Source of the DNA: Bilabrum cf. latius
Lineage: Eukaryota
Direction: 5' to 3'
DNA length: 64,000 bases
Assembly (NCBI GenBank): GCA_965178125.1
Contig: OZ237744.1
Span: forward strand, 806,001-870,000
Shown here: one piece after another, positions 27,659 to 64,000 of the stretch
Layout of the letters: the number at the start of each line of letters is the position of its first letter
Position numbering within the stretch: the stretch's first letter is position 1
Translations under genes and position numbers: made by a program
Notes under the pieces: model-generated
What the model saw: only the letters and a program-made list of their open reading frames with translations
Told to the model about the DNA's origin: nothing
Databases searched by the model: none

Positions 27659-27712
<54 letters not shown>

Positions 27713-34982: not shown

Positions 34983-35093
34983 CAATTAATATGGCTGCGG
35001 TTTCAACTGTCCGGAACTGATCAAGATAGCCCCCCTGGCACGCGTACTTTGCCGCTGCTTGTGACGATGGCTTAACTGCAACTCGTCGATTGA

Positions 35094-39469: not shown

Positions 39470-39673
39470 GCTTTCTAGCCGTTTGATGAAAGTGCTACTG
39501 GGCAAGAGGCTGCGTTCAAGATGCTCGCACTCGGAATGCGACGAACTGCAACTGCGTGCCTGCGACACTTGATGACTGGGCATAACCAAGACCCATCCTG
39601 GAATTCGACGGTAATTCTAGATTCTCCCCAACTTAAGCTGGTGCATTATTTGGAACTGGGGTGAACTGTTCCA

Positions 39674-41677
39674 ATGGGTTCCATTAGCCCAGCAGTGGAC
39701 CCGCCTCCAGTGCATGCCCGACAGGCTAGCACTGATGCGGTACTTTCGTTTAATAGCTTGAGCTCAGACTCGATCGTGGGTCTTGGAATGCCATCATATG
39801 GACGGCCTAGGTGCGCCAAGTGGGTAGTAGCAGTATGCAGCCTTGCATTTGCGTCGAGCATCGGTGCTGACTACGTATGGTTCATGTCAAATATTATAAA
39901 TACCAAGGATGAGGCCGTTAGACTCATGAGAACGCAGCACGGGCTATGGATGGGAGTCGTTGCCGGTGCGAGTCTGATGCTTCCCCTCGTTCTGGCTTTG
40001 ATTCTCAATCTGCTAGGGTGCTGCTTCGCCTGCGGGCAGAAACTCATCGAAGGAAACGGGTCTGGTGTTGGAGCTGCCCGACAGAAGGCAATGGCACACA
40101 GCGCATTCGACGTGGTCGGCCATGTGGGCCGCGTGATCCTCTCCCCGGTGCAGCCACTCGCCGTCGTGCTCATACCACTGGACGACCAGGGCAGGGTGGA
40201 TCCCAGGCAGTTCTTGCGGCTGTCATTCGACTCGTTCATTGCAAGCACCATATTTGTGGGGTTTCACATAACGGCCCAGCTGCTGGTGCAGGCACGCGTG
40301 CAGGTAGAGACGGATGGTCTTGCGGATGTGTGCTACGTGATTTGTCTAGTATTTGGTCTGATGGTGCTCAGCGTGCGGTTTCCCATAATGGACTTGTACA
40401 TTGGAGCAGGTAGGGACACGGATTTAAACCAAAGGCTGGTCCGACCAAGGGGCAGCGTTGTCGTGAATGCCTTGGTGCTGAGCTTTGCCGCCCTGCACTG
40501 CTTCTGCGGGGCTGGAATCGCCATCCTAGCCTTCAGTCTGTTCAGAAATACGTACCACGTTAGAGATGGCCACGGGATCCATATCCTGGCACGGCGGCAG
40601 GGGAGTGATTTCAGCGACGTGGCCCCGAGTGGAGCGTTTGAGGAACGGGCCGGGGAACACGCCGGGGAACAAACCGACGATCGTGTCAGTGGTGATCTTG
40701 GTGCCTCCTTTGGTGCATCCCAGGCGTACGGCCTCACCCCCTTGGTCCAGGCGGGAGTGTTCGGGTCGTACGCGCTGGTGGCCGCGATGCAGCTCGCTTA
40801 CTTGCACACGTTCGGTGACATGGGAATCGCGGGCGGTTGGAATGCGTGGCGGTCCACGACGTAGGGCCGCAGCTGCTTGGAGCTGACGTATCGATTCGTG
40901 TCGCTCGTCCTGCTGCTGCCCTTGATGTGCTCCATGCTGGCACTCATCTGCCCCGGCCTCGCGCTGCTTACCCGCATACTTTCAGGTGCTCTTTTTGACT
41001 CCGGAACGAGGTACAGGTACGTACGGGGCGAGGTGGGCGCGATTTGGGACATCCACGGCCACGCGACGCTGGGCCAGGGTCTTGCCCAGTCAGTCGTGAT
41101 CTTTGCCGGAAGCGTCGCAGCTCTCGTGGACTTTGAGCTCCGCGCCGTGCCGCCCCCTCCCATTGCCCAATGGATCATTCTCGTGGTTTCAGTCGCTTCT
41201 GCGATGCTCGTCATCGTGAACGCGTTTCTTGTCGCGGTCCTGCGACCGGCTGGCTGTTGCGGATGGTCGCACGAGGGTATGATGCATGCCATCTAGACTT
41301 GTGAAACTCCCTGCTGCAAATAGCTTTTAGGGACGGTATTTTTGGACGGGACTGAAACAGTAGGTTCCCAGGGCGATGATGCACGCAGAAACGGAAATTC
41401 CTCGGCGTCGCAGCGCCTGCTCAACGGAGCCAGCGTGAACCGACCGGCAGGTACTGCGGCCGGACAGCTCCACCACCCCGGAGATTCACGGCAACGCGAT
41501 GATAGGATGGAAAACCTGCTTGAGCGACTTGCAGAAGAAAGTAGTGACTCCGGCATGAGCTGTGGAGGGGCTGGAACCCCGAGTAGCATAGATTCGCCTC
41601 GGCGTGCTATCGCTAGCACCAACGAATTAGGCAGAACCAAGAGCTCCCTGCAGATGATCACGCTCACCGACGCCTGA
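39674..41677 (+). CDS. Multi-pass membrane protein of unknown function
   Basis: Many hydrophobic segments; ORFs 39674, 40877 and 41342 join in one frame through TAGs at 40862, 41294, 41321; TGA stop. Confidence 0.7.
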
Positions 41678-41889: not shown

Positions 41890-44800
41890 ATGGCACATGC
41901 AGCAAAGCACCTGAAGTAGAATATTTGCGGAGCACTCTTGGCCGGATTCCTTTCGACAGCGAATGCCATCCACATATCCGATGCCATGGCGCGAAGTGGA
42001 CCCCAAATCATGATGTCTAGTGCAAGCTATGTAAACACTTGTAATGGTGAGCATGCCTGCTTATTGTATTCATATGAATCGAAGCGAACCTTTTAAATTG
42101 CACAAGAGCGGTTCATCACTTACAAATTTCTTGCAGCCACCTGGTTCGCCACTCGAGGCCCCAGCTCCATCGGCATCGGTGTCCATGCCACTCGAGACAA
42201 GCGTGTCATCGACTCTGCCGATGCCGCGGCGCGCCCGTCTCCTGATGGCGCTGACCTGGCCGGCTGCGAGCTGGTGCCCATCCCATGGACCCCTCGGGTC
42301 CCAGGCAACATGTCTCGGTGGCAGTGGGGCGGGGCCATGCCTGGGGGTATTGGAGGTGCGATGGGTCCGATCGCGGCGTGCAGGCAGAACGGCACTGACG
42401 GCGCTTCTGCGGCCATCGAGGAGTGTCTGGTGAACGCGACGCTGTCGGCTCCGATGGACGGGAGGTACCCGGCTGCAGCATCCCCGCAGGAGGCCCCATA
42501 TGCTGTGGGTGTGTCTCCTCGGAGCAGCGCGTTGTTGCCTCCGACTCGATCAGTGGAGCCGTGGACGACGGAGGAGTGGGTATTCCTCTTCCAGCAGGAC
42601 GGTGATATAGGCGATTGGCAGACTGGCGAGCTCTTGACAGGATCGTACCAGAGATACCGGGGAATATCGTCAGTGGGTGAATCCAAGCATCCGTGGGCGC
42701 CCACCTATTACAGCGCATTTCTGAACGCAGTTTCCTTTGGGCAGTACGTCGTTTTTGCCCCGTTCCGAGACCCGATAACGGACTTGTACCGGAGAGTAGG
42801 GACTGCGTATCTTCCCATGGTGTCTTGCGGTGCAGCTGTGCTGACCGATGTGTGCACTCCTGCAGGTGTACCAATCGCACCAAATGATACGTGCAGATAG
42901 GCCACAATGTGGCACAAAGTTCGGGCGAATGTGTCCAAATAGGCGTGCGAGCTGCACCCAGCGTAGCCGTCTGCTGCAGCCGCTTAGACATTCCCAATAA
43001 ACAATGGCTTGGCATCGAGCGTTATCAAGGATGTGCTGGTGTCCCACATCCCCAACCCACCAGGTACTACTTCATACCCATTTCCAGTGTCTGGAGCAGG
43101 TGTCGACAACAGGTGGCATCAGCTAGTCACCGTGGTGTATCCGCCTGGGACCGTGGCAATTATGTCGGTGCAGAGCGACGGAGACAGGACAACATTTCCA
43201 CCGCTGCAATACCCTTGGCAACTGAATCGTGGGTACGTGGTGCAGACGATGATGAACATAGCCCAGATTCCTGCTCTTTTTTCGCCTAACGCTGATGCGC
43301 AGTACAGCTACTCAGATGCTGGTTCCATGGTATGCGACAAAGGTGGATACGTGCAGACGCATGGCATGCCCAGCAATTTCACTTTCGACGCCTTTGTGTC
43401 CGCCCAGGTCATCTTGGACGATCCATCCTGTGTCGCCACGCAGACATGCAGTCCCGTGGCTCCCAGGAACCAGACACCTGGCAGCCCCGCCGTGTAGCAG
43501 GCCGTGAAGGACTGGATCAGGGATGTGTACTGGAAGCAGCCCATAGGCACTCGCATCCCACGCTTCGGATGCGCTGTTGACTACTTCATGCCGCCGTATG
43601 ACAACATATTCAGTATATTTGATCTGGTGCACATGGACTACCCCGCTGCAGCCTCCACCCGCATGGCCACCATCGGAGGATATGGCATGCCGGACCAGGC
43701 CCCAGCCAGAGGGACATGGAATGCGTCATCTAGCCATTCCACAACTACCAGTAGTATCCCAAGCTCAAAGGAAAAGTAGCGTCCTTCTGGCAGAATCGAT
43801 TCAAGCAGGATTCCCTGGCGACCTGTGCGACCAGCCGATCCAAACGGCCCTCAGCCATTACCGCGAGATCGGCCCGTGCTGTAGGGGCCCAAGGCCAGGT
43901 ACAGGGGTGCGGCGCTCTGGAGGCTGACGGCGCCGCCCGTCAACAAGTCCCTGCCGGCCATCCAGGGCGGGTACTGGACATGCATGGAGACGTCGCCGCT
44001 GGGCGCGTTCTTCATGCGTCCTGTGTGTCGGGCGGAGTGTTTGGATCCGTCGCGCGTGGCCGTGGACGTGGGCCTGCAGCGGCGGGCTGGCGATGGGTCT
44101 GGGCATGATGCGGGTCAGCATGGCATGTCTCTGGTGGCATCGCTGGCGCGTCCGTGGCTGTCGGCGTGGGGCGGGTATCCGTCGCTGGTGCAGAGCGAGA
44201 GCGTGGTGCCTCGATCGGACCGTCAGGGCGGGGGCATGGTGGCATCGTTCGGGAGCTGGTCTGGGTGGGGCGCGTGGCATGCGCCTCGGTACAGGCTGGG
44301 AGACGAGGTGGAGACGGACATGCGGTGCGTGCGCGACGTGGGCAGCAGCGTGTCGTGGCAGTCATTGTGGGCGCAGCGGGAGCCGACGAGCCGCGCGGAC
44401 GTGTGGCTGACTCTGTCATTCGACCGCGGCTACTGGCCAGCGGCATAGTCCAGCTCGGTGGGGGATGTGGGTCTGGACTACCCTCAGCCCACAGCGGCGC
44501 AGGTGCGTCGGCTGGAGGCGGAGGTGTCGGCCGACGTGGGCGACTTGCTGGGCGAGGTGGACTGGACTGCGCGCGGGCGGGGCGTGGAGGTGGGGATCGG
44601 GGAGCGTGTGAACAGGACAGCAGGCAACGACACGGTGGTGGCGCGACTGCAGACGCGGTCGATCGAGAGTCGCGTGATGTGGGTGCGGGCGCCTGGGCGT
44701 GTGGGTGTGGACTCGTTCCCGATGCATGTGCGTGTGCAAGTGTCTCTGAAGGAGCTGGCAGCAGTGCTGTATCCTTCATCTGTGAGTGGTGGCGTGCAGC

Positions 44801-46566
44801 GTGGTCGGTCGGCCGGGACACTTGCTCAGTAGCTGGTGGGCATTTTGCGCGGGCATCGTCCCGGGGCGGAGGGGGGAGCGTGGCTACCGGCGGTGGACGC
44901 AGGGAGTGTGTCATACCGCGTGCGTCTGCCTTGCTTGTCGGGCGGATATGGGTCGGATGCTCGTGAGTGCGGGGCGGTAGGCGCGGGATCATGGGTGAGC
45001 GCGTCTGGCGGGGTGTAGCTGGGGGTGTTGTTTATGCTGATTGTAGGTGTGTTTGGGGTAGTCGCAGGCTGGTGGATGCGTGGCTAGTACCTCAAGGACC
45101 GCATCGCAGTTGCAAATAGGAAGCCACTGCTGTCTGTTGCCTCCTCCAGAACACCAGACTCAGTAGAACATAGACTTAGGCTGGCTGATGCAGGGTCTTA
45201 CAGTAGATCAGAAGAGGAATTGACCTCATTTTCATGGAGATATGCACAGCTGTGTGGTGGGTTGGTGGGTGTGTTGAGTCTGTGGCGCTGGGCGCAGTAT
45301 GTTTGCCTTGGTGTCCTTCTTTTGTCCGTCAGGCTGAGCGGCCCCGGAACGTTGGTATTGATAGGCCTGCTGGTCGCTATTATAGGCCGAGAAGCCTTGC
45401 AATGGCTCTATGGCGGGACATTGTACAGCGGTAGCGAGTTGTCTGATGAGCTCTTGGCCATGGACGAGATCTCGCGGCCGGGGTTGCGCACGAGTTCATC
45501 TGGTCTCGGGTCAGTTCCAAGAATAATTCGCCACCGGAGAACAAGCGAGCTTTGGAAGTCCTCGGATGAACCAGTCGGTGCCAGGTTGTCGAGATAGACG
45601 GGTGGTGCCAAGGGCTCGAGCTACGCCCACAATGATATTATCTCGGCATCGCCGTCTTCGCCAAACGAACAGTCTACGGATGGTAGTTTGAACGAGTAGG
45701 ACGAAGATGACCCAGTTTTTCGCCTTTTTTCATAGCAAGGTAGTTCAATGTTCAAGAATCCAGGCGGTCCTGGACGGCTATAGACCAACGGCCGCTCGTA
45801 GGCAGCTGGATCTCAGCCTGATGACCTGGTGCTTGGCTGGAGGTAGTCTACTTAGGGCGCTGACACAACCCTCAGCAGCTTCAGTCGCGATGAATCTATA
45901 CCGTCGCAAGAAAAGGACTTCCAATTAGACTAGGATTGCTCCATAGAAGACTTGGAGATCGAGCTCCCTGGGGTAGCGGGCGCAGATGAGACCGTGGAGC
46001 CCAGTAGACCAGCGCCGGTGGCCGTCACGCGGCGAGCAACGCGACTAGTACCCGGAATTCTCGCTGCACACATGGGCAGGCACCTGGGTGCAAGTATTCT
46101 TGTCAGACTCTTGTCGGCGATTCAGTGGGACGCCTTCCAGCTGCTGTGGAGTGGCGCAGCGGAGTCGCTAGATCCAGTTGCTCCGTATTTACGCAAACTC
46201 GCAAGGGAGGGGTTGGCCAGTGGTGACATGGCTCCTCCGAGCCGACAATTTCTAATGCGAGCGCTTGGGTTGGCGTGGTTAGAGCGTACATCATCGTGGT
46301 TTCGATCGCTGGAAGACGCCTGCGTGGCTTTTGCTGTTGCCTGGTCGGCCCTGTGTGCCTTTGGGATCTGTAAGTGGTAGCAATGCATGGTGTCCTAGGC
46401 TGCTTCTCCTGAGGCGATTGCGTTCATAGCCACTGCACCAGAGCTTTATTGGGAGCATCTCGTTGGGGCCACTGCGACAACAGCGATTCTGACTCTAGCG
46501 CTGATGGTTGCATCATGCTGTTGGACAGTTTGGATGCATTCGCAAGCGTGCATGCGGTGGCAATGA
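41890..46566 (+). CDS. Variable surface/membrane protein family, copy A
   Basis: Signal-peptide exon 41890-42046, intron 42047-42136, then one frame broken only by TAGs to TGA 46564-46566. Cys-containing ectodomain followed by several TM segments. Confidence 0.8.
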
Positions 46567-46583
46567 AACAGGCAAATGAAACT

Positions 46584-49500
46584 TTAGCGTGTGGACACAA
46601 CAGTCACCGTCCAAACCACCGACAGCACAAGCGCCACACCCGACAGCCCCACAATCCACACCGTCGTGCCCACCACATGATCCCAGTACAGCGATGGGTC
46701 TGTTGCCAACATCGCCATCGCTGACTAAGACAGGCGCTGCCCAACCACGCACTGCCGCCACCCACATGCCCCCGAAGCGCAAGCCAAAGCCCAGCTGAAG
46801 CCCCCGATCACACACGCATCTTCCAAGCCACGGAACCACGCAGCCGCCCCGTCCACCCAGCTGGCCCCGACAAGTCTCAGGACGCGCTGCCGCTCACTGC
46901 ACGGGCTCCAAGCACCAGCCGTCTCACGATGCTGGTCGTACCGCCTGTGAGCCAGCGGATCGAGGGCTTCGGATGCGCCGGACCAGAGGAGCTGCAGAGC
47001 ATCCCACTGCAGCGTGGCAAGAAATCGCACCAGGATGGTAGCTCCGATGTGCTGGCTGGCATGCTGCCGAAGCGCCCTAGAAATAGCAAGGACGGGGCTT
47101 CTGCCAGCCGGCTTATGCGGGTGGCTGACCATACTGCGCACTATTCGAGAAGCTGCAGGCTCTTGACCTAGGTTAGCGGGCTCTTCAGTGCTGCCATCGG
47201 CACTGCTTGAGTCCATTGAGTTATGCCAGTGCCCTCGTGACAAACTGCCAGCTACCGCCCCAATGCCCATTTCACCTTCACTGGAGGAATCTGACGATGC
47301 TTCGAACACCGATGTGAAAGCCTCGATGACCTTGTCGTTAGCTTGCTAGTTTGAGCTCCACTCCGTCGAAGTCGCCCGCACTGCAAAATCATCTTCAGGT
47401 ACGGATGACGCTTCACCGACATTCGGTTCGCCAGAGTTACTCGATGACTACCTGTGCTTGCGGCTAGAATTAAACTAGCGCGTAAGCCCTGCTCTAGTCC
47501 CACCGGCCTTGGGGCGTGATTTACATGGCAGCTGGAGCTCTGGTGCAACAGCTGGCGACTGCCTTGTTGCAGGGGTCAATGCCCCTACTGAAAGCAGCGG
47601 AATGGGCAGGATCAGCACACGAAGGATGCTTGATACCACGATGCCCCCGAGCACCAGCAGCCCAGGGCTGCTCAGACGGACATTCACCAACACCACGCCA
47701 AGACTTACATACTGCGCCCAGCGCCACAGACTCAACACACCCACCAGCCCACCACACAGCTGGCCACAGCGCAACGGCTCACCAACCAAGGCTGCACAGC
47801 GCCATCCTGACTCTGATTGGCCCCCTGCAGCATCAGTGCCACTGTGCTCGCTGCTGCGATGCTGGATGCTCACACCCGCTGTCAGATTCGACACGGGAGT
47901 ACTAGCAAAGCTGCGGTCGCTCTCCGCACCTGGTAACCACTCGCCAACCAGCAATGGTGCCGTCAATGACCGCGAGTGGCGCTCATGCAGATACCGACCA
48001 CGCATCCACCAGCCTGTGACTACCCCAAACACACCTACAATCAGCATAAACAACACCCCCAGCTACACCCCGCCAGACACGCTCACCCATGATCCCGCGC
48101 CTACCGCCCCGCACTCACGAGCATCCGACCCATATCTGCCCGACAAGCAAGGCAGACGCACGCGGTATGACACACTCCCTGCGTCCACCGCCGGCAGCCA
48201 CGCTCCCCCCTTCGCCCCGGGACGATGCCCGCGCAAAATGCCCACCAGCTACTGAGCAAGTGTCCCGGCCGACCGACCACGCTGCACGCCACCACTCACA
48301 GACGAAGGATACAACACTGCTCCCAGCTCCTTCAGAGACACTTGCACACGCACATGCATCGGGAACGAGTCCACACCCACACGCCCAGGCGCCCGCACCC
48401 ACATCACGCGACTCTCGATCGACCGCGTCTGCAGTCGCGCCACCACCGTGTCGTTGCCTGCTGTCCTGTTCACACGCTCCCCGATCCCCACCTCCACGCC
48501 CCGCCCGCGCACAGTCCAGTCCACCTCGCCCAGCAAGTCGCCCACGTCGGCCGACACCTCCGCCTCCAGCCGACGCACCTGCGCCGCTGTGGGCTGAGGG
48601 TAGTCCAGACCCACATCCCCCACCGAGCTGGACTACGCCGCTGGCCAGTAGCTGCGGTCGAATGACAGAGTCAGCCACACGTCCGCGCGGCTCGTCGGCT
48701 CCCGCTGCGCCCACAGCGACTGCCACGACACGCTGCTGCCCACGTCGCGCACGCACCGCATGTCCGTCTCCACCTCGTCTCCCAGCCTGTACCGAGGCGC
48801 ATGCCACGCGCCCCACCCAGACCAGCTCCCGAACGATGCCACCATGCCTCCGCCCTGACGGTCCGATCGAGGCACCACGCTCTCGCTCTGCACCAGCGAC
48901 GGATACCCGCCCCACGCCGACAGCCACGGACGCGCCAGCGATGCCACCAGAGACATGCCATGCTGACCCGCATCATGCCCAGACCCATCGCCAGCCCGCC
49001 GCTGCAGGCCCACGTCCACGGCCACACGCGACGGATCCAAACACTCCGCCCGACACACAGGACGCATGAAGAACGCGCCCAGCGGCGACGTCTCCATGCA
49101 TGTCCAGTACCCGCCCTGGATGGCCGGCAGGGACTTGTTGACGGGCGGCGCCGTCAGCCTCCAGAGCGCCGCACCCCTGTACCTGGCCTTGGGCCCCTAC
49201 AGCACGGGCCGGTCGGGCGACAGGGGCTGAGGGCCGTCTGGATCGGCTGGTCGCACAGGTCGCCAGGGAATCCTGCTTGAATCGATTCTGCCAGAAGGAC
49301 GCTACTTTTCCTTTGAGCTTGGGATACTACTGGTAGTTGTGGAATGACTAGATGACGCATTCCATGTCCCTCTGGCTGGGGCCTGGTCCGGCATGCCATA
49401 TCCTCCGATGGCGGCCATGCGGGTGGAGGCTGCAGCGGGGTAGTCCATGTGCACAGGTGCGACTGATGGAGGAATCAATAAACCAGATGGATAGCCATCT

Positions 49501-51349
49501 CGTCCTACATAATAGCTCAGGTCGCATCCGAAACGCGGGATGCGAGTGCCGATGGGCTGCTTCCAGTATACGTCCCTGATCCAGTCCTTCACTGCCTGCT
49601 ACACGGCGGGGCTGCCAGGTGTCTGGTTCCTGGGAGCCACGGGGCTGCATGTCTGCGTGGCGACACAGGATGGATCGTCCAAGATGACCTGAGCAGAGAT
49701 AAATTGTTCATAGTCCTTTATATGGTTTGGTACTCCTTGTGATTCATCTAGACCGATTGTGGGTTCCTTGTTAGGACGACCGAACCTGTCGCACAGCATG
49801 GATCCAGCGTCTGAGTAGTCATATTGAGATTGCCCACCCGGGGATAGCACAGACGGGATGGAGGCTACGTTCATCATCGTCTGCACCACGTACCCTTCAT
49901 TGATGCGCCACGGGTAGGCGACACGCGGGAACTCTGCCCTGTCAGTCGTTGCTTGCACAACCATCTCGGCCACCGTCCCGGGGGGATACACCACGGTGAG
50001 GAGCTGATGCCATCTGTTGTCGACACCTGCCCCTGAGGATGGAAACCGGTAATCAAGTGTACCTGGTGGATTGGGGATGTGAGCTATTGTTCCGTGCAAC
50101 GTTTTCTCCGAAAGGAGATAATTGTTCTACGGGAAATGTTTTGCGTTCTTCGCCCACGGCTCGCCGTAGTCGTAGAAGCAGTCGCGCGGATCGGACGTGG
50201 CGTTCCAGTTGGGCCCACGCCAGAGAGTGGCCTGCCTGCATGTGTCATTGGGTGCTATGGGTACTCCGGCAGGCGTGCACACATCGCCCAGCTGCACGGC
50301 GGGACAAAGCCGTAATGGAACCTTGAACTTAGCTACTCGCGACTGCAGCTTAAGGTCTTCGTAAAAGCCATACTCCAGACTGTGCCCGTGAGTGACACTA
50401 CTTAGTTTTGCAGCGAAGAATGTCGGCGCCCACGGACGCTTGGATTCACCCACTGACGTTTCGCCGAGATATCGATGGTACGACCCTGTCAGCAGCTGGC
50501 CGGTCTCCTTGGACCTTCGTGGTGCACTTGGAAGCTCAAAAGTAAATACCCACTCCTCCGTCGTCCACGGCTCCACTGATCGAGTCGGAGGCAACAACGC
50601 GCTGCTCCGAGGTGACACACCCACAGCATATGGGGCCTCCTGCGGGGATGCTGCAGCCGGGTACCTCCCGTCCATCGGAGCCGACAGCGTCGCGTTCACC
50701 AGACACTCCTCGATGGCCGCAGAAGCGCCGTCAGTGCCGTTCTGCCTGCACGCCGCGATCGGACCCATCGCACCTCCAGTGCCCCCAGGCATGGCCCCGC
50801 CCCACTGCCACCGAGACATGTTGCCGGGGTACCGAGGGGTCCATGGGATGGGCACCAGCTCGCAGCCGGCCTGGTCAGCGCCATCAGGAGACGGGCGCGC
50901 CGCGGCATCGGCAGAGTCGATGACACGCTTGTCTCGAGTGGCATGGACACCGATGCCGATGGAGCTGGGGCCCCGAGTGGCGAACCATGTGGCTGCGAGG
51001 GGAGTGAAACAGGAAGCAAAACAAAGGTGGGCCACTCTGCTTTGCTGCATCTCGCCGGACTAAGTGACAATGCAGCTGCACAGCACAAGTACTAAACGAT
51101 GCAGGACTAATCTGCCCGTACAATTCGCAGAAGGGGTGAGGCGGACACCGAGACTCTATCGGAGGTGCAGGACTTGAGTCTATGCACACACCATCGTTCT
51201 GGCGGTCGTCAACAGTGCGCACCCACATACTCACAATTGCATTTCGACACAGTGCTACTCCCAAACAGCTGAATCTGGGGCCCAGCAGATTCCATAGCGT
51301 CCCGTATACTGATCCCGTTCGTCATGATGATCAGAGTCAAGGCAAACAT
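46584..51349 (-). CDS. Variable surface/membrane protein family, copy B (start approximate)
   Basis: Paralogous to A in inverted orientation; same first-exon/intron layout (GISIRDAMESAGPQ...CN|); ends at TAA 46584-46586. Confidence 0.8.
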
Positions 51350-51818
51350 AACACGAATAAACGGAGAGCACGCGGATTTACTTGGCCTATAGAATCGTAC
51401 ACCAAATACTCTCGTGCGCCTTCGTGCTTCAACGCATGCGGCAGCACAGCAAAAGTCCAATATCAAGCCTCTGAGTTGTGCGCCTCCCATCTGCCAGTGA
51501 CACATCATGGTGCTTCGGTTCGTGCCAGCTGTGACGTCCCAACGTGATCGCAGAGCAATCAATAATAGTCTCGTGGACAACGATTCAAACGTAGTCGCAG
51601 TAGGAGCTTTGCAATGAAGGCAGTGGATTTATGGTGCTAGCGGGCGCAATGACGAATGCACGCCACCGGCGGCATCTGGGTCGCAAGCGGTCGGAGAAAA
51701 TAAGGTATGCTTGAATTCCAATAAATGCACACTACGAGCAAAATTGTGTAAGGCCGCTCGATCACACAGCCCTACGTACAAGATTTGCTCTGCAAAATGC
51801 CCCCAGTATCGAGTTGGG

Positions 51819-54800
51819 TCAGTTCCTGCACGCCAACAAAACCACAGTCCAAACCACCGACAGCACAAGCGCCACACCCGACAGCCCCACAATCCACACC
51901 GTCGTGCCATCCACATGCTCCCAGTACAGCGATGGGTTCGATGCCAGCATCGCTATCGCGAACTCAGACAGGCGCTGCCCAACCACGCACTGCCGCCACC
52001 CACATGCCCCCGAAGCGCAAGCCAAAGCCCAGCTGAAGCCCCCGATCACACACGCATCTTCCAAGCCACGGAACCACGCAGCCGCCCCGTCCACCCAGCT
52101 GGCCCCGACAAGTCTCAGGACGCGCTGCCGCTCACTGCACGGGCTCCAAGCACCAGCCGTCTCACGATGTGTGTCGCGCGCCCTGCCTGCCAGCGGATCG
52201 AGGGCTTCGGATGCACCGGACCAGAATATCTGCAAGGCATCCCACTGCAGCGTGGCAAGAAATCGCACCAGGATGGTAGCTCCGATGTGCTGGCTGGCAT
52301 GCTGCCGAAGCGGCTGCTCTAGGGCACATGGGGCACTGGCGCTACCGATCTACTGATGAATCCATCCACGACGCGATTTGCTGGCTCCTTTCGCCACCGC
52401 TTCGTCGGATGTTGGGCTGCGATCAGACGCCCCTTGATCATTATCAGATTCTGAGCTTTTCTCCGGGTCTGCTTGCTACCGTCGCAGCTGTCCTGGCAGA
52501 TCGTAGTCATTGAGGCTATCCATTACTCCTGAGTCCATTGAGTAGCGCCAGCCTCGGTTGGGCTTATTGAGGGAGCTCACGCTTCCGCTTGAGGTGCCGG
52601 TGGTCTCGCTCGTGCCTGCTCCGAATCCAGCGATGCGGACGGCAATCGTTGGATCTGTCCCCACCTTCGCTAGTGTCCGCCGTTCCCGACTGCTGCCCAG
52701 GGCATCCCGACACGATGGAAGCTCTTCATTGCGATCCGACGTGACGTGGCTTGTTTCCGACAAGTTGATGAAATGAGACGAGTAGCTGTTACCGCCTTTT
52801 TCCGACTCAGATGAACCCGATTCCTGACCTGCCGCAACTCTACCGATGTTCCTGCTTCTCTTCAACCGGCCCGCTGACTCGACATACCGAGACGGGTCTT
52901 TCGGACCAAGGAATGCTCCTCCATGAACAACATAAAGCAGCCAACGGGACACCACTACCACCATGAGTCCTCCTAGGACCACCACACCGGGTCCATTCAG
53001 CCGCAGCAACAGGAGCATGACACCAAAGCAAACATACTGCGCCCAGCGCCACAGACTCAACACACCCACCAGCCCACCACACAGCTGGCCACAGCGCAAC
53101 GGCTCACCAACCAAGGCTGCACAGCGCCATGCTGACTCTGATTGGTCCCCTGCAGCATCAGTGCCACTGTGCTCGCTGCTCCGATGCTGGATGCTCACAC
53201 CCGCTGTCAGATTCGACACGGGACTACTAGCAAAGCTGCGGTCGCTCTCCGCACCTGGTGACCACTCGCCAACCAGCAATGGCGCTGTCAATGACCGCAA
53301 GTGACGCTCACGCAGATATTGACCACGCACGCCCCAACATACAACCATAAACATCGAACTCAGTAACAGCACCATCAACACCCCCAGCTACACCCCGCCA
53401 GACACGCTCACCCATGATCCCGCGCCAAAACCATCGCACTCACTGGCATGCTCAGCATACCCGCCCGACAAGCAAGGCAGACGCACGCGGTATGACACAC
53501 TCCCTGCGTCCACCGCCGGCAGCCACGCTCCCCCCTCCGCCCCGGGACGATGCCCGCGCAAAATGCCCACCAGCTACTGAGCAAGTGTCCCGGCCGACCG
53601 ACCACGCTGCACGCCACCACTCACAGATGAAGGATACAACACTGCTCCCAGCTCCTTCAGAGACACTTGCACACGCACATGCATCGGGAACGAGTCCACA
53701 CCCACACGCCCAGGCGCCCGCACCCACATCACGCGACTCTCGATCGACCGCGTCTGCAGTCGCGCCACCACCGTGTCGTTGCCTGCTGTCCTGTTCACAC
53801 GCTCCCCGATCCCCACCTCCACGCCCCGTCCGCGCACAGTCCAGTCCACCTCGCCCAGCAAGTCGCCCACGTCGGCCGACACCTCCGCCTCCAGCCGACG
53901 CACCTGCGCCGCTGTGGGCTGAGGGTAGTCCAGACCCACATCCCCCACCGAGCTGGACTACGCCGCTGGCCAGTAGCTGCGGTCGAATGACAGAGTCAGC
54001 CACACGTCCGCGCGGCTCGTCGGCTCCCGCTGCGCCCACAATGACTGCCACGACACGCTGCTGCCCACGTCGCGCACGCACCGCATGTCCGTCTCCACCT
54101 CGTCTCCCAGCCTGTACCGAGGCGCATGCCACGCGCCCCACCCAGACCAGCTCCCGAACGATGCCACCATGCCCCCGCCCTGACGGTCCGATCGAGGCAC
54201 CACGCTCTCGCTCTGCACCAGCGACGGATACCCGCCCCACGCCGACAGCCACGGACGCGCCAGCGATGCCACCAGAGACATGCCATGCTGACCCGCATCA
54301 TGCCCAGACCCATCGCCAGCCCGCCGCTGCAGACCCACGTCCACGGCCACACGCGACGGATCCAAACACTCCGCCCGACACACAGGACGCATGAAGAACG
54401 CGCCCAGCGGCGACGTCTCCATGCATGTCCAGTACCCGCCCTGGATGGCCGGCAGGGACTTGTTGACGGGCGGCGCCGTCAGCCTCCAGAGCGCCGCGCC
54501 CCTGTACCTGGCCTTGGGCCCCTACAGCACGGGCCGGTCGGGCGACAGGGGCTGAGGGCCGTCTGAAATGGACTGGCGTGACGGTGATTGACTCAAGCTG
54601 GGGCCAGGTGCGGACTTGCCGCTTGGGTCCAATACTCGACTACTGGTCGATGATGCGTTCCATGACCCTCTGGCTGGGGCCTGGTCCGGCATGCCGTATC
54701 CTCCGATGGCGGCCATGCGGGTGGAGGCTGCAGCGGGGTAGTCCATGTGCACCAGATCGTACATGGGCGGCAGGAGCAAGCCGGACGGGTAGAAGTCTTT

Positions 54801-56537
54801 CCCCGCATAGTAGCTCAGGTCGCATCCGAAACGCGGGGTGCGAGTGCCGATGGGCTGCTTCCAGTACACGTCCCTGATCCAGTCCTTCACGGCCTGCTAC
54901 ACGGCGGGGCTGCCAGGTGTCTGGTTCCTGGGAGCCACGGGGCTGCATGTCTGCGTGGCGACACAGGATGGATCGTCCAAGATGACCTGGGCGGACACAA
55001 GTGGATCCAATCCGTGCAATGTCTCTGCACTTGCAACAGAATTCTCTGATTGCGATGCTGGTCGATCGAACCTGTCGCACAGCATGGATCCAGCGTCTGA
55101 GTAGTCATATTGAGATTGCCCACCCGGGGATAGCACAGACGGGATGGAGGCTACGTTCATCATCGTCTGCACCACGTACCCTTCATTGATGCGCCACGGG
55201 TAGGCGACACGCGGGAAGTCGGCTGGGTCAGTCGTTGCTTGCACAGCCATCTCGGCCACCGTCCCGGGGGGATACACCACGGTGAGGAGCTGATGCCATC
55301 TGTTGTCGACACCTGCCCCTGAGGATGGAAACCGGTAGTCAAGTGTACCTGGTGGATTGGGGATGTGAGATGCCTGACCTTGCTGCTCCGAGTGGGACTG
55401 CTGTGCTTTGCCCCTCGTGAACGTCTTGGCCGATGCAACCTGTGGCTGACCATAATCTTGGTAACAGTCGCGTGGATCCGTCGTCAAGTTCCAACTCGAC
55501 TAACGCCAAAGCGTGGCCTGCCTGCATGTGTCATTGGGTGCTATGGGTACTCCGGCAGGCGTGCACACATCACCAAGGAGAACTGGACCGCATGCCGCAA
55601 CTGGTAGATTGTATTGCGCTACCCTACTAAGCAGAGCAGGCGCATCAAACGCGCCAAAGACAAGACTGTGACCGTGAGTGTTAGCTTTGACCCCTTGAAC
55701 GCTATGCGTTGGCGCCCACGGACGCTTGGATTCACCCACTGACGAAATACCGGTGTACCTCTCATAGGACGCAGTCAGCATCGCACCAGTGGCTAGCGGT
55801 CTCGGAATATGTGGCTGCGCGAATGCAAGCGCCCACTCCTCCGTCGTCCACGGCTCCACTGATCGAGTCGGAGGCAACAACGCGCTGCTCCGAGGAGACA
55901 CACCCACAGCATATGGGGCCTCCTGCGGGGATGCTGCAGCCGGGTACCTCCCGTCCATCGGAGCCGACAGCGTCGCGTTCACCAGACACTCCTCGATGGC
56001 CGCAGAAGCGCCGTCAGTGCCGTTCTGCCTGCACGCCGCGATCGGACCCATCGCGCCTCCAGTGCCCCCAGGCATGGCCCCGCCCCACTGCCACCGAGAC
56101 ATGTTGCCGGGGTACCGAGGGGTCCATGGGATTGGCACCAGCTCGCAGCCGGCCTGGTCAGCGCCATCAGGAGACGGGCGCGCCGCGGCATCGGCAGAGT
56201 CGATGACACGCTTGTCTCGAGAGGCATGGACACCGATGCCGATGGAGCTGGGGCCTCGAGTGGCGAACCATGTGGCTGCGAGGGGAGTGAAACAGGAAGC
56301 AAAGCAAAGGTGGGCCACTCTGCTTTGCTGGATCTCGCCTAGCACACACCATCGTTCTGGCAGCCGTCAACAGTGCGCACCCACATACTCACAATTACAT
56401 TTCGACACCGTACTACTTCCAAACAGCTGAATCTGGGGCCCAGCAGATTCCATTGCGTCCCGTATACTGATCCCGTTTGTCGAACGAACAATCAGCAGTC
56501 CCGTGGCGAATAGAAGCTACATGAGTGAAAGCTCCAT
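51819..56537 (-). CDS. Variable surface/membrane protein family, copy C
   Basis: MELSLM[TAG]LLFATGLLIV signal exon; direct paralog of B; TGA 51819-51821. Confidence 0.8.
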
Positions 56538-56844
56538 ACGAAAAGAAGAGGTTACAGCCAGTGCTTTGGTGGCCTCCTAATTCCTGGGATTGGGTCTTTG
56601 CATCAGAGCTCCAGGCTCAAAACTACCTAATTCTTGCAGCTATCCCATCCATAGATCCAAGTCATGGCGCTTTTTGTCGCGTAAATTGTATGTACGGCTG
56701 ACCCGAAAGATAAAGGGTTAGTTTGTGAAAAAGAGAGATTAGAGGCTTGCGAAACTTTGCTGTGTGTTCGTGATCGCCCAGTCAATTCGGCGCCTGGTTT
56801 TAATCTTCTTCTTGAAAGTTCAACACGCTACAAAGACGCCTGCC

Positions 56845-59048
56845 AGTGAAAGAGAGGCTCCAGCACGGGCACCATCAAAGGATCGTGACCGACACCGGAC
56901 GATACGTTGAATGTGGACAAGTCGGGTACGCAGACGACTACGTGGCACTGACGTCGAACTGGAACGAAGCAGTGGCGGTCATGAAGCTAGTCAAGAGCCT
57001 GTTTGCACTTGCGGGCATGTAGCTGGGAATCAAGCCCCTGACAGCATCGGGCCAGGGAACCAAGACAGCGATCATGGCCTTTGGCTACGCTCGGGACTCA
57101 ATTCCTGGGGACATGCCAGAGGGCGTCGCATGCAGAGCAGCGGACGCGGGAGAGGCGGATGGGGAGTGGACCATCCCACTTGCCTCATCCTACCTGTACC
57201 TCGGTCTACTCATTTCGACCCAACCGGTACGGATCAGCCCAGATGAAGTAGCTGGGCTGACGCAGGCGAGAGACATCTGGGTAATTGATATGGCACCCCA
57301 CGTACGCAGGAGGATTGCGATGGCGTACCGGGCGGCCAGGGACATCACACGAGCGGCGGTGAACGGCAACTGGGCGGTCTCCCTGCACGCCCAGCTGCTC
57401 CATGCAGGAGCAATCACGAGTGCATTCTACGGAGCAGAGGCAGCGGCATGTGCAACAGGATGGGACACCTTGTCAGGATTAGGATATGGTTCCCAAGTTT
57501 TCTACGGGATGGAACTGAACCTGGAAGTCCTCAAGATGCTGGACAAATTCCTGCTGGATATGCGCTGGATGATTGTCAGCGGATCGACACAGGTAAGGCC
57601 CTTCACCATGGGCGGTCGATACGTGCCAAACCTTGCGATGGACACTGAGCTGCTGACGGCATCGGCAGCAGGGCGTGTTGCTATGGGCCTGCTGGACCTG
57701 ATCGAGTGTCCCTCGAAGAAGGGCCTTGATGTTGCGGCCAGGTTCATCCACCAGGGCCGATTCCTGCAGGGACCACCAGTACAGACAGGCCCACTCGGGG
57801 CCGCGCTGGCACTGGGATTCAGGATCAAGATGGCAGGGTGGACCCAACGGATCGATGACGCGAAGGACTGGCTGGGATGCCAGGAGACTGCAAAAAAAGT
57901 CACAAAGTGGAGGAAATCCAAATCCGGAGCTGCTGACCGATCGTTCACAAGCCTGAGCCTGGGATGCTCGCACGATCCGGCACTGTCGGATTGGGACCGG
58001 GAGAGCGCCGCGCTCGGAGTGGTCATGCTTAACCGGTACGCAACGAAGGGACGGTATGCCTTCGGACCAGGAGCCATGCCAACAGCAGCGGTGGTGCAGG
58101 AATACGGCCACCAAGGAAGACGAATTCTGCGCATCCGAGCTGGACAATACCCGCAACAGGGCACGCCCAACCTTCAAGTGATGGGCACCGCGGTAGAGCA
58201 GATGGAGCGGGCCGAGCATGACCATCATGCCGGAACGAGACCGTGGCAACCCGATGATGCGGATCAGAATAGAGGGAGGTCCCCTGCCTCTCTCCGGAAA
58301 GCATGGGCGAAGACAGCTCTCGCTCAGGACCCTTGGGACGAGAAGCTGGAGCGCACCAGCAGGGCCAAGCCAATCGTCGAAGACGCACTCACTCGGATAG
58401 AGCGTACGATTGCGCGGTCATCGGAACGGACAGCTGTCAAGGAGCTGGCCAACCGAGTGGTGCAGGTGATCAGGAACCAGCTGCGCTAGCAGGAGTAGCT
58501 GACGTGCAGGCAGTGGATGCGAGGCGATGCGGCGGCTGCTCTTGCCGCCACGGCCACGCAAGAGCTGATAGCGGCAACCAATGCGAACGCTCGGCTACAG
58601 CGACGGATGTTTAAGCCCCACGGCTTGCTAAGGGACATAGAGAGGCAATGGGCCAAAGGCATGAGCGCGTGCATGCTAGCCTCTCTGAAGGACCGTGAGA
58701 CGCAGAGACGGTCATGGAGGAGGAAATGGTGGGTCCCGGCAGGGGACCCTGATGTGGGACTGGACCGCGCTTTGTGCCGGGCACATGCTCCGCACCTGTA
58801 TGCTTTCTCCCTGTGAAGGCATCAGGCTGAGGGCTTGTGGGGGACCACATTGATGGCGAATGAAGGGGACTCGGCGGTGTAGGCTGAGATTGGGGGGCCT
58901 TTGGCCTGAAAGGGTCGGGGGTCTTGTAGTCCTTGTTTGAGGACTCCTCTGGATTCAGGTGATCACTCGAACTCCTTCGGGGGCAACGGTGCATCTGGGT
59001 GCTTGTGGAATCTTTACCCAACAATGTATTTCTGTATTTCTGTATTTA
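56845..59048 (+). mobile_element. 5'-truncated non-LTR retrotransposon (LINE-like), C-terminal half of RT
   Basis: YADD at 56927-56938 is in frame, via TAG 57020, with ORF 57074, which carries IPLASSYLYLG and AFYGAE (end-of-RT/thumb-like motifs). The frame continues through TAG 58487 and 58496 to TGA 58814-58816. 3' tail of (TGTATTTC)x2 + TGTATTTA at 59025-59048. Confidence 0.8.
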
Positions 59049-59197
59049 GTGGTCGCAACCGGAGCTGCCGCTTCACCAGCAGGGGATATTCATGTTGTTT
59101 CCGATTGTGATTCATGTTCCGTACTTGAAAAATGCCTGCATCGCACGCGAAAAATAAACATCCCACAGCCTCCACCCGACCTGCACCCGTCCAAAGG

Positions 59198-62100
59198 TCA
59201 GTTCCTGCACGCCAACAAAACCACAGTCCAAACCACCGACAGCACAAGCGCCACACCCGACAGCCCCACAATCCACACCGTCGTGCCATCCACATGCTCC
59301 CAGTACAGCGATGGGTTCGATGCCAGCATTGCCATCGCGAACTCAGACAGGCGCTGCCCAACCACGCACTGCCGCCACCCACATGCCCCCGAAGCGCAAG
59401 CCAAAGCCCAGCTGAAGCCCCCGATCACACACGCATCTTCCAAGCCACGGAACCACGCAGCCGCCCCGTCCACCCAGCTGGCCCCGACAAGTCTCAGGAC
59501 GCGCTGCCGCTCACTGCACGGGCTCCAAGCACCAGCCGTCTCACGATGTGTGTCGCGCGCCCTGCCTGCCAGCGGATCGAGGGCTTCGGATGCGCCGGAC
59601 CAGAATATCTGCAAGGCATCCCACTGAATTGCCATCAGGATTTCCATGAACACTGTGATACCAACGTGCTAACCAGCATGCAATCGCATAAGGGCCCTAC
59701 CCTCAGGGCCTCTGCGGCTGCCATTGCTGCTGCTTGAATCGGACGGCAACACTGCACCTGCACGGCCGTTCGTACTTCCAGGACCTGGCTGCAACGACAT
59801 GCCAACCGAGGCACTGCTGCTTCCTTGGCTCGCTTGTGGTTGCAGACCCTTCGGGGTACTGCTGCTTCCTTGGCTTGCTTGCGGTTGCAGACCCACCGAG
59901 GCACTGCTGCTTCCTTGGCTTGCTTGCGGCGGCAGACCCACCGAGGCACTGCTGCTTCCTTGGCTTGCTTGCGGCGGCAGACCCACCGAGGCACTGCTGC
60001 TTCCTTGGCTTGCTTGCGGCGGCAGACCCACCGAGGCACTGCTGCTTCCTTGGCTTGCTTGCGGCGGCAGACCCACCGAGGCACTGCTGCTTCCTTGGCT
60101 TGCTTGCGGCGGCAGACCCACCGAGGCACTGCTGCTTCCTTGGCTAGGTCGAGGAGGTTGCCCTGCAGAGGCATCGGTGCGATCCAAACCGAGCGGCTGA
60201 GCCAGCTCGATCTCCGCAGCATCAGCGTCGTCGTCACCGGAAGGGCTGCGTTGCTGCTCCTCATCGTTCTCAGCGTTGACACCATGGTTTGGATGGACAT
60301 CGGGCTTATCAGGTGCAACAACGTCCTCAAGATTCCCACCATGGAACGTTTTAATCACAGACTGTTCGTCTGAGTCACGATCTCTCCAATACTTCGATGA
60401 CCCTCCACTCGACACCTCTGATTCCGAGCTACTTCGGTCCTCTGATTCGCCTGCCTATATGGCTGCTCCGTGAGTAACCTCAACGTTTGACCCGGACATG
60501 TCGTCCAAGTCAGGCCCTACCTAGTCATTTCCGATCTGCTCCCTCTAGTAGCTATCCACGCTCAACACGCTGGAAGGAGAGCCACAACCACAGAATGCCC
60601 TCACCGCAACGGACAGTACCAGTCCTCCCAGGACCACCACACCGGGTCCATTCAGCCGCAGCAACAGGAGCATGACACCAAAGCAAACATACTGCGCCCA
60701 GCGCCACAGACTCAACACACCCACCAGCCCACCACACAGCTGGCCACAGCGCAACGGCTCACCAACCAAGGCTGCACAGCGCCATGCTGACTCTGATTGG
60801 CCCCCTGCAGCATCAGTGCCACTGTGCTCGCTGCTCCGATGCTGGATGCTCACACCCGCTGTCAGATTCGACACGGGACTACTAGCAAAGCTGCGGTCGC
60901 TCTCCGCACCTGGTGACCACTCCCCAACCAGCAATGGCGCTGTCAATGACCGCAAGTGACGCTCATGCAGATACCGACCACGCACGCCCCAACATACAAC
61001 CATAAACATCGAACTCAGTAACAGCACCATCAACACCCCCAGCTGCACCCCGCCAGACACGCTCACCCATGATCCCATTCCGAAACTTTCACAGTCGCTG
61101 GCATGCTCAGCATACCCGCCCGACAAGCAAGGCAGACGCACGCGGTATGACACACTCCCTGCGTCCACCGCCGGCAGCCACGCTCCCCCCTCCGCCCCGG
61201 GACGATGCCCGCGCAAAATGCCCACCAGCTACTGAGCAAGTGTCCCGGCCGACCGACCACGCTGCACGCCACCACTCACAGATGAAGGATACAGCACTGC
61301 TGCCAGCTCCTTCAGAGACACTTGCATACGCACATGCATCGGGAACGAGTCCACACCCACACGCCCAGGCGCCCGCACCCACATCACGCGACTCTCGATC
61401 GACCGCGTCTGCAGTCGCGCCACCACCGTGTCGTTGCCTGCTGTCCTGTTCACACGCTCCCCGATCCCCACCTCCACGCCCCGCCCGCGCACAGTCCAGT
61501 CCACCTCGCCCAGCAAGTCGCCCACATCGGCCGACACCTCCGCCTCCAGCCGACGCACCTGCGCCGCTGTGGGCTGAGGGTAGTCCAGACCCACATCACC
61601 CACCGAGCTGGACTACGCCGCTGGCCAGTAGCTGCGGTCGAATGACAGAGTCAGCCACACGTCCGCGCGGCTCGTCGGCTCCCGCTGCGCCCACAATGAC
61701 TGCCACGACACGCTGCGGCCCACGTCGCGCACGCACCGCATGTCCGTCTCCACCTCGTCTCCCAGCCTGTACCGAGGCGCATGCCACGCGCCCCACCCAG
61801 ACCAGCTCCCGAACGATGCCACCATGCCCCCGCCCTGACGGTCCGATCGAGGCACCACGCTCTCGCTCTGCACCAGCGACGGATACCCGCCCCACGCCGA
61901 CAGCCACGGACGCGCCAGCGATGCCACCAGAGACATGCCATGCTGACCCGCATCACGCCCAGACCCATCGCCAGCCCGCCGCTGCAGACCCACGTCCACG
62001 GCCACACGCGACGGATCCAAACACTCCGCCCGACACACAGGACGCATGAAGAACGCGCCCAGCGGCGACGTCTCCATGCATGTCCAATACCCGTCCTGGA

Positions 62101-64000
62101 TGGCCGGCAGGGACTTGTTGACGGGCGGCGCCGTCAGCCTCCAGAGCGCCGCGCCCCTGTACCTGGCCTTGGGCCCCTACAGCACGGGCCGGTCGGGCGA
62201 CAGGGGCTGAGGGCCGTCTGAAATGGACTGGCGTGACGGTGATTGACTCAAACTGGGGCCGGGTGCGGACTTATCGCTTGGGCTCTATACTCGACTACTG
62301 GTTGATGATGCATTCCATGCACCTCTGGCTGGGGCCTGGTCCGGCATGCCATATCCTCCGATGGCGGCCATGCGGGTGGAGGCTGCAGCGGGGTAGTCCA
62401 TGTGCACCAGATCGTACATGGGCGGCAGGAGCAAGCCGGACGGGTAGAAGTCTTTCCCCACATAGTAGCTCAGGTCGCATCCGAAACGCGGGGTGCGAGT
62501 GCCGATGGGCTGCTTCCAGTACACGTCCCTGATCCAGTCCTTCACGGCCTGCTACACGGCGGGGCTGCCAGGTGTCTGGTTCCTGGGAGCCACGGGGCTG
62601 CATGTCTGCGTGGCGACACAGGACGGATCGTCCAAGATGACCTGCGCAGATGCGATAGAGCCAAATTCAACCGATTGCGTCCCGTCGGTAGTACTTATTG
62701 CTTGATTCGGAATCGGTCTTCCTTCCGGATCGCACAGCATGGATCCAGCGTCTGAGTAGTCGTAGAGCGCACCACCATCCGGGGATAGCACAGACGGGAT
62801 GGAGGCTACGTTCATCATCGTCTGCACCACGTACCCTTCATTGATGCGCCACGGGTAGGCGACACGCGGGAAGTCGGTTGGGTCAGTCGTTGCTTGCACA
62901 ACCATCTCGGCCACCGTCCCGGGGGGATACACCACGGTGAGGAGCTGATGCCACCTGTTGTCGACACCTGCCCCTGAGGATGGAAACCGGTAATCAAGGG
63001 TACCTGGCGGGTTGGGGATGTGGGCTGCCTGACTCTGCAAGGTGGTCTCTCGGGCGACAAAGCTGTTTTGTGGGAAGGCCTTGGCTGACGCGGCCCAAGG
63101 CTAACCAACGTCATTGTAGCAGTCGCGCGGATCGGACGTGGCGTTCCAGTTGGATCCACGCCAAAGCGTGGCCTGCCTGCATGTGTCATTGGGTGCTAGG
63201 GGTACTCCGGCAGGCGTGCACACATCGCCCAGCTGCACGGCCGGGCAATCTGCGACGGGGATGTTGTATTGCGCGACCATGGAGGCCTGCACTGGAAACA
63301 AATAGGTACCTGGGACGAGGCTATGCCCATGCGCAACGTTGTCCCGCACGCTGGAGTAGTACGTCGGCGCCCACGGACGCTTGGATTCCCCGACAGGTGT
63401 TGCTCCCGGGTACCTCTCGTATGAACCGCTCAGGAGCGGGCCCTGCACGGCGGTACCCGCCCGGGATACGTGTGGGACAAACGAAAATACCCACTCCTCC
63501 GTCGTCCACGGCTCCACTGATCGAGTCGGAGGCAACAATGCGCTGCTCCGAGGAGACACACCCACAGCATATGGGGCCTCCTGCGGGGATGCTGCAGCCG
63601 GGTACCTCCCGTCCATCGGGGCCGACAGCGTCGCGTTCACCAGACACTCCCCGATGGCCGCAGAAGTGCCGTCAGTGCCGTTCTGCCTGCACGCCGCGAT
63701 CGGACCCATCGAGCCTCCAGTGCCCCCAGGCATGGCCCCGCCCCACTGCCATCGAGACATGTTGCCTGGGACCCGAGGGGTCCATGGGATAGGCACCAGC
63801 TCGCAGCCGGCCAGGTCAGCGCCATCAGGAGACGGGCGCGCCGCGGCATCGGCAGAGTCGATGACACGCTTGTCTCGAGTGGCATGGACACCGATGCCGA
63901 TGGAGCTGGGGCCCCGAGTGGCGAACCAGGTGGCTGCAGGAAACAAAAACTGAGAATTACATCGGACTCACGACGAATATACATAGACGAGCTCGACAAT
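59198..64000 (-). CDS. Variable surface/membrane protein family, copy D (first exon beyond window end)
   Basis: Direct paralog of B and C; splice acceptor near 63936; TGA 59198-59200. Confidence 0.8.
59805..60145 (-). repeat. 45-bp coding tandem repeat, about 7.5 units (SQGSSSASVGLPPQA)
   Basis: Unit gaggcactgctgcttccttggcttgcttgcggcggcagacccacc repeated head to tail within copy D. Confidence 0.95.

Follow-up and report, generated by a model that had tools for sequence, protein, structure and literature searches.

UAG as a probable glutamine codon in a GC-rich eukaryotic contig: evidence from a cluster of four paralogs and neighbouring genes

The stretch of DNA considered here, referred to as the window, comprises 64,000 nucleotides of Bilabrum cf. 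latius, positions 806,001 to 870,000 of contig OZ237744.1, and has a guanine-plus-cytosine (GC) content of 60%. Its right-hand part carries four related copies of a long gene, named A, B, C and D, whose frames span 4.5-4.7 kb and are open only when TAG is taken as a sense codon. In this window TAG is a sense codon, and glutamine is its best-fitting meaning. The four paralogs are organized as follows, with positions counted from the first letter of the window.

41890-46566, plus strand: paralog A; exon 1 41890-42046, exon 2 42137-46566; 1528 amino acids; 22 in-frame TAG; stop TGA
42047-42136, plus strand: intron of A; 90 nucleotides, GTGAGC..TTGCAG; placed solely by homology to the splice sites of C
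46584-51349, minus strand: paralog B; exon 1 51349-51235, exon 2 50992-46584; 1507 amino acids; 11 TAG; stop TAA at 46586-46584
51234-50993, minus strand: intron of B; 242 nucleotides; placed by homology to the splice sites of C
51819-56537, minus strand: paralog C; exon 1 56537-56393, exon 2 56275-51819; 1533 amino acids; 9 TAG; stop TGA
56392-56276, minus strand: intron of C; 117 nucleotides, GTGAGT..CGCAG; removed in contigs of the runs X5 and X7
59198-63933, minus strand: paralog D, exon 2 only; exon 1 lies past the window end; acceptor site conserved; 10 TAG; stop TGA

The splicing of C links a short exon 1, encoding a hydrophobic N-terminus, in frame to the long exon 2, and its splice-site sequences are kept in A and B. 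With TAG as glutamine, the two-exon models of A, B and C contain zero inner stops. The hydrophobic stretch itself holds one TAG in A (41917) and one in C (56519). At the 5' end of the long frame of B, three TAGs (51182, 51158 and 51062) are intronic and do not count as codons, which corrects the picture drawn in a preliminary description of this DNA. As modelled, the paralogs would be functional two-exon genes for membrane proteins of about 1500 amino acids, with a hydrophobic N-terminus, an ectodomain of about 1000 amino acids, membrane helices and a variable cytoplasmic region. The genes for A and B are convergent (46564-46586), with 17 bases between the TGA of A and the TAA of B.

Under the standard code, the longest open frame of the window is 747 codons, and four frames reach at least 500 codons. 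Reading TAG as sense yields 17 frames of at least 500 codons, six of at least 1000, and a longest frame of 1749. Order-2 Markov simulations of the window, also with TAG as sense, average only 0.55 frames of 500 codons or more, their longest frame being 594 codons, and the long TAG-open frames are therefore not due to chance. Reading TAA as sense brings no gain, leaving four frames of at least 500 codons as with the standard code. Taking TGA as sense lengthens frames in the simulations as well as in the window itself, which then has 21 against a simulated mean of 7.85.

Codon counts were made on 18 gene models comprising 15,742 codons; the TAG pairs of 21391-22464, where a frame competes with its antisense, were kept out of every count. 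TAG occurs 106 times in frame, and 136 and 104 times in the two off frames. The corresponding numbers are 0, 43 and 57 for TAA, and 0, 285 and 275 for TGA, the in-frame zeros being partly built in, as the frames were delimited by TAA and TGA. Sixteen models terminate in TGA and two in TAA, and TAG contributes 14.7% of the glutamine-type codons. Additionally, a second in-frame TGA lies at most four codons past the terminator in five of the 18 genes (g1 at 5252, the mitochondrial carrier, the coiled-coil gene, the DM10 gene and the SDR gene); chance would give about 8% per gene, with a binomial P of about 0.012. With so few terminators available to the organism, these second TGAs may act as a back-up.

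The preliminary description had reported positions at which one paralog holds TAG and another CAG or CAA, and had concluded that the two are synonymous. All of these swaps are present in the codon alignments, and again on the corrected gene models. The TAG of A at 42898-42900, in the context NDTCR_AT, stands opposite CAG in B (50234), C (55520) and D (63175). A second TAG, present in A (45016-45018), B (48065-48063) and C (53390-53388), is replaced by CAG in D (61045-61043), with 16 flanking residues that are 100% identical. This site, at 45016, falls at the start of a predicted membrane helix (model residues 637-674). The TAG of A at 45085-45087 faces CAA in C (53321-53319) and also CGG in B and D, which the earlier account did not mention, and that at 46396-46398 faces CAG in B (46739), C (51977) and D (59356). 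The four TAGs described as common to all copies are there as well (A coordinates 43495, 43882, 44446 and 44830), the last three within a block that is 96-99% DNA-identical between copies. Three further swaps were found: alignment column 334 has TAG in A and D, CAG in C and GAG in B; the TAG of B at 50129 is opposite CAA in D; and the TAG of D at 59671 is opposite CAG in B and C.

The corrected alignment of A-D contains 36 TAG-holding columns, of which four are all TAG, ten are variable and reliable (at least 40% identity over ±8 residues), and 22 were excluded as lying in poorly aligned regions or exon 1. The partners of TAG in the ten reliable variable columns are CAG or CAA in six, GAG in two, AAR in two, CGG in two, and GGR, ATA and CCT in one each; TGG, TAY, TTG and TCG are found opposite TAG in none of them. 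The glutamine codons thus lead the tabulation, as had been anticipated, and the synonymy of TAG with CAR is supported. In the same tally a glutamine partner occurs in 5 of 23 glutamate columns, 3 of 32 arginine columns, 6 of 65 leucine columns, and in none of the 16 tyrosine or 15 lysine columns. There are 41 columns composed entirely of CAG, CAA or TAG, including 28 of uniform CAG, four of uniform TAG, one of uniform CAA, five mixing CAA with CAG and three mixing CAG with TAG. Given three mixed columns against five, CAG exchanges with TAG and with CAA at similar frequencies, and the exchange rate looks synonymous. Two codons that are one C/T transition apart and carry the same meaning would be expected to swap freely between copies.

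A sense TAG could have another meaning, with glutamate as the nearest candidate and lysine or arginine following. GAG or GAA stands opposite TAG in two of the ten paralog columns and at one of five ortholog sites in the DM10 gene described below, and the non-glutamine partners alone place glutamate and lysine above glutamine. This reading is nevertheless improbable, as CAG or CAA stands opposite TAG in six of ten paralog columns and three of five ortholog sites, one CAG/TAG case lies inside fully identical flanks, and glutamate columns find a glutamine partner far less often than TAG does. BLOSUM62 scores summed over 16 paralog and ortholog columns, a small sample, likewise favour glutamine (39.5) over glutamate (22.5), lysine (14) and arginine (10.5).

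All four copies have a mosaic structure. Their central block of 380 codons (about 1.1 kb; A 43900-45040) is 96-99% DNA-identical among all of them, while the flanks show an identity of 50-85% with a nearest neighbour that shifts, and the cytoplasmic middle is unalignable. This pattern suggests gene conversion within a variable family of membrane proteins, and the copies would diverge through ordinary substitution. It could be argued that A-D are decaying pseudogenes or repeats and that their TAGs are nonsense mutations, particularly since CAG to TAG is a common one-step transition and A holds 22 TAGs against 9-11 in B-D. This explanation is scarcely tenable. About 6,100 paralog codons contain no in-frame TGA or TAA, both of which are common off frame, and TGG is never a partner, although TGG, too, can become TAG by a transition (G to A). 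Frameshifts after the TAGs, which the preliminary description had named as a refutation of the synonymy, were looked for and none was found: the 12 distinct inter-copy blastn blocks all differ in length by multiples of 3 (0, 0, 0, 0, 3, 3, 3, 6, 6, 39, 42 and 45). Block lengths were used here, as an indel-length test by strict flank identity left zero qualifying gaps. The ratio of nonsynonymous to synonymous substitution rates (dN/dS) is 0.16-0.70 in each alignable segment, A and the segments after many TAGs included, and being always below 1 gives no sign of positive selection in those segments. Moreover, C is seen spliced, and conserved single-copy genes of the window also hold in-frame TAG.

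These other genes extend the evidence beyond the cluster. Six of those with Pfam domains carry in-frame TAG, as listed here with other features of the window.

10924-12045, plus strand: mitochondrial carrier (Mito_carr, Pfam); 4 in-frame TAG
12244-15039, minus strand: coiled-coil-like open reading frame of 931 amino acids; 16 TAG
17209-18618, minus strand: RRM protein (Pfam); 2 in-frame TAG
20289-21140, plus strand: ATP-synthase OSCP subunit (Pfam)
22924-25557, minus strand: single-copy gene with three DM10 domains and EF-hand, EFHC1/RIB72-like (Pfam DM10_dom, E 1.7e-63); 3 in-frame TAG
27540-29576, minus strand: Plus-3 domain gene (Plus-3/Rtf1, Pfam); 3 in-frame TAG
29957-33646, plus strand: amino-acid transporter (Aa_trans, Pfam); 4 in-frame TAG
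33816-34985, minus strand: gene of no recognised family that looks secreted; adjoins the GH88 gene
35094-36200, plus strand: GH88 gene (GH88/GH105 hydrolase, Pfam); zero TAG
38417-39715, minus strand: short-chain dehydrogenase (SDR, Pfam); 3 in-frame TAG
56848-59047, plus strand: 5'-truncated retroelement resembling a long interspersed element (LINE), between copies C and D; open reading frame with a YADD motif; 3 in-frame TAG

A related species provides an independent view of these genes. The metagenome contig L001 (6.5 kb, 57% GC) is syntenic with 19600-25735 of the window at about 75% nucleotide identity. The DM10 genes of the two align over 836 codons, with 700 identical amino acids, and both terminate in TGA. 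Three TAGs of the window stand opposite CAG, CTC and CAG in L001, and two TAGs of L001 stand opposite CAG and GAA in the window, so that a glutamine codon is the partner at three of the five sites. In the OSCP gene (83% amino-acid identity, dN 0.12, dS 1.14), the one TAG of L001 lies opposite GAT. As L001 carries in-frame TAGs of its own (two in the DM10 gene and one in the OSCP gene, within 414-2936 and 4928-5710), at sites that differ from those of the window, the reassignment is older than the split of the two species.

More distant relatives of the paralogs exist as fragments. Searching 1.84 billion representatives with HMMER yielded 59 relatives of the ectodomain, all of them fragments of 65-546 amino acids. 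Of 7999 candidates scored for the paralogs, none is a homolog of near full length. By hand tally, glutamine occupies 22 and arginine 12 of the 79 aligned cells opposite paralog TAGs. At site 42898, all three distant fragments aligned there show glutamine, which may itself be TAG read by a gene caller using code 15. One fragment, 97% identical to B, stops exactly before a TAG of B. No Pfam family was found in any of A-D. A Foldseek search of the Protein Data Bank (PDB) found no structure at E of 0.001 or below, the best being 1.7e-02 with a template-modelling score of 0.09; the query was an AlphaFold model of a 680-residue part of the ectodomain, which is poor (mean predicted local distance difference test score 55.9).

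The role of TAA requires separate consideration. In a code of the table 6 type, as in ulvophyte algae, hexamitids and Amoeboaphelidium, both triplets would be glutamine here, and TAA would be rare because the genome is 60% GC. TAA is indeed the rarest stop triplet of the window (213, against 458 TAG), and just two gene models need it as a terminator. If TAA stood to TAG as CAA stands to CAG (139:477), about 31 in-frame TAA would be expected among the codons counted, where none is found. The TAA of B and the TGA of C and D are at most one codon apart, and a read-through at this TAA would append 154 codons antisense to gene A; table 6 extensions are full of odd codons, or in A enter an intron. 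We therefore regard a shared reassignment as unlikely, and TAA as quite probably a stop.

TAG could also be dual in meaning, being sense within genes and a terminator at their ends, as in Condylostoma or Blastocrithidia. Such a context-dependent code has room in 12 gene models that are without a homolog against which to check the C-terminus. In contrast, the DM10 protein aligns with its homologs through the last residue and the ends of A-D fall within a few codons of each other, and all of these genes terminate in TGA or TAA. No TAG occurs within six codons past any of the 18 terminators, and a dual meaning is accordingly given little credence.

Public contigs mapped onto 42200-62199 allow TAG to be followed into putative transcripts. 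The joint 56275->56393 skips 117 bases, whose ends are CT..AC on the plus strand and GT..AG on the gene strand; it occurs in one contig each of X5 and X7, two runs of one study, and in none of X1. In X5 and X7 the copies differ greatly in depth, which fits RNA. As a further rival, the code itself would be standard and U-to-C editing would turn each TAG into CAG in the mRNA; nothing was seen in its favour. The X7 pieces, one of which carries the spliced joint, span all nine TAGs of C with 0 other letters, the RNA status of this run being a guess. This suggests that TAG is retained in the RNA of C, and editing is extremely unlikely.

Taken together, we give a probability of about 0.9 to the reading that UAG is glutamine in this nuclear genome, with UGA as the main terminator and UAA apparently a terminator too, a code like NCBI table 15. 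UAG would then be an ordinary codon, serving about 15% of glutamine positions. By analogy with other reassignments, its decoding would involve a tRNA-Gln with a CUA anticodon and an eRF1 that is blind to UAG.

Several points weigh against this reading. Four of the ten reliable variable columns are without a glutamine partner (G/K, K, R and E/P), and when glutamine partners are set aside, the BLOSUM62 order is E, K, R and then Q. No TAG of the window falls on a strongly conserved glutamine of a Pfam domain, and one occupies what we take to be the usual lysine or arginine place of the carrier signature. At the three TAG sites of the DM10 gene, its distant orthologs P0006 and P0007 have G, V/I and R. 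P0003, which shares 99% identity with the DM10 protein, has Q at each of these sites, but its gene caller had probably already read TAG as Q, for which reason the Q of database relatives is not independent. TAA as a stop rests on two terminators, one of them (B) with homology support, and is partly circular. A search of the window for tRNA genes found 0, and eRF1 is not among its genes. Finally, the label 'RNA?' on X5 and X7 is a guess, X5 also being labelled 'probably DNA', and the intron-less form could be an allele instead of an mRNA.

The window appears to be nuclear DNA of a GC-rich, aerobic, intron-poor microbial eukaryote bearing a cilium or flagellum. An aerobic source that builds this organelle is suggested by the Pfam gene content, including the carrier, OSCP and the DM10 gene, whose closest solved structure is RIB72 (PDB, 7.3e-63), followed by EFHC1. 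A comparison of the DM10 protein with protein clusters pointed to generic DM10 clusters, one Oomycota-rich cluster at rank 9 being a weak lead. Code 15 is also used by crAss-like and other gut phages, which assign the same meaning to the same codon (PMC9523058). A phage source was considered and is ruled out by the eukaryotic domains (Mito_carr, OSCP, Plus-3, DM10), the spliceosomal-type GT..AG intron and the LINE-like element.

In nuclear genomes, a change of UAG alone to glutamine is described for the fornicate Iotanema spirale, for the ciliate Protocruzia tuzeti and for two lineages of phyllopharyngean ciliates (PMC5304391 and PMC11687900); as in the window, UAA and UGA are stops and in-frame TAG lies opposite glutamine codons of homologs. 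The window differs from these carriers in its 60% GC, its OSCP subunit and carriers, and a contig of at least 64 kb with a LINE-like element. Iotanema is anaerobic, and OSCP and the carriers argue against an anaerobe with reduced mitochondria. Protocruzia and the phyllopharyngean ciliates have AT-rich or gene-sized chromosomes.

A change of both UAG and UAA to glutamine is described (PMC6299283, PMC8271138 and PMC11687900) for Amoeboaphelidium protococcarum, ulvophytes (Dasycladales, Cladophorales, Trentepohliales), Hexamita, Streblomastix and many ciliates; in Amoeboaphelidium, TAG and TAA appear to encode glutamine (PMC6299283). These systems share with the window a TAG that means glutamine and a TGA that works as terminator, and differ from it by their use of UAA, as the window is without in-frame TAA and ends two of 18 gene models with it. 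The Amoeboaphelidium genomes are 40.5% and 39.9% GC (PMC10608142), against 60% in the window, and on this count Amoeboaphelidium does not fit as the source; a source among the ulvophytes is conceivable. The converse comparison is with the rhizarian exLh, where UAG is leucine, and Scotinosphaera, where it is serine, UAA being kept as a stop in both (PMC5304391 and PMC8271138). These cases resemble the window in that a nuclear genome outside the ciliates gives UAG and UAA separate roles, but the partners in the window are glutamine; leucine is opposite TAG once (CTC, in DM10), and serine never in the reliable columns.

A change of UAG to glutamine with UAA as a stop is a rare kind of code change that is already known, and what may be new is its carrier. 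It is possible, and we advance it tentatively, that the window and the related species L001 represent a lineage in which the change of UAG alone to glutamine was previously unreported, namely a GC-rich, aerobic, flagellated and intron-poor protist. A full-text search of the literature did not turn up any GC-rich aerobe outside the ciliates in which UAG alone is glutamine; it did not cover supplements, which possibly list more lineages. One paper considered, PMC6733595, concerns plastid UGA and has no bearing on the question. If the lineage is indeed new in this respect, the rare uncoupling of UAG from UAA would have arisen independently once more, and a stop codon would have been captured, unusually, under GC instead of AT pressure. 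The few cases in which UAG changes and UAA stays a stop test the idea that eRF1 and wobble decoding couple the two codons (PMC5304391). With TAG as 15% of its glutamine codons, a GC-rich carrier would show an old, fully fixed reassignment, for which AT-driven codon loss is no obvious explanation. In practice, standard-code gene callers would fragment all genes of this organism and its relatives, and their annotation needs TAG as glutamine. The paralog cluster would serve as a compact internal control for proteomic tests of the code.

Opposite the conserved core of all four paralogs lie antisense open reading frames of 326 amino acids (44012-44992 on the minus strand; 48089-49069, 53414-54394 and 61069-62049 on the plus strand), which start with ATG and are stop-free. 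They were considered as candidate genes and rejected, being rich in proline, arginine, alanine and threonine and having no Pfam match. Most likely they are a by-product of the richness in G of the coding strand, and gene callers that apply the standard code would probably list them as genes. Only D contains, in its cytoplasmic region, a tandem repeat (59802-60173) with a 90-base unit in copies that are 88-92% identical, encoding repeated GLPPQASQGSSSASV units.

The LINE-like element between C and D ends in a (TGTATTTC)x3 tail at 59025-59047, and public contigs have loose ends at 56835-56848 and 59045-59047. Its open reading frame has no Pfam match. The depth of run X1 climbs to 1871 near the 3' end of the element, against 5-50 over the neighbouring genes, and the element is therefore high-copy. 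The coiled-coil-like open reading frame at 12244-15039 contains two TAG-TAG doublets adjoining runs of CAG and CAA, and its TAG count is exceeded only by that of copy A.

An Rfam scan of the window returned 0 families. The named relatives of the GH88/GH105 gene at 35094-36200 are JGI function labels or NCBI bacterial entries, with 34-41% identity, and the gene may have been horizontally acquired. Past the RRM gene, the spacer at 18747-19106 contains a short tandem duplication, with units of about 150-210 bases that are 80-84% identical.

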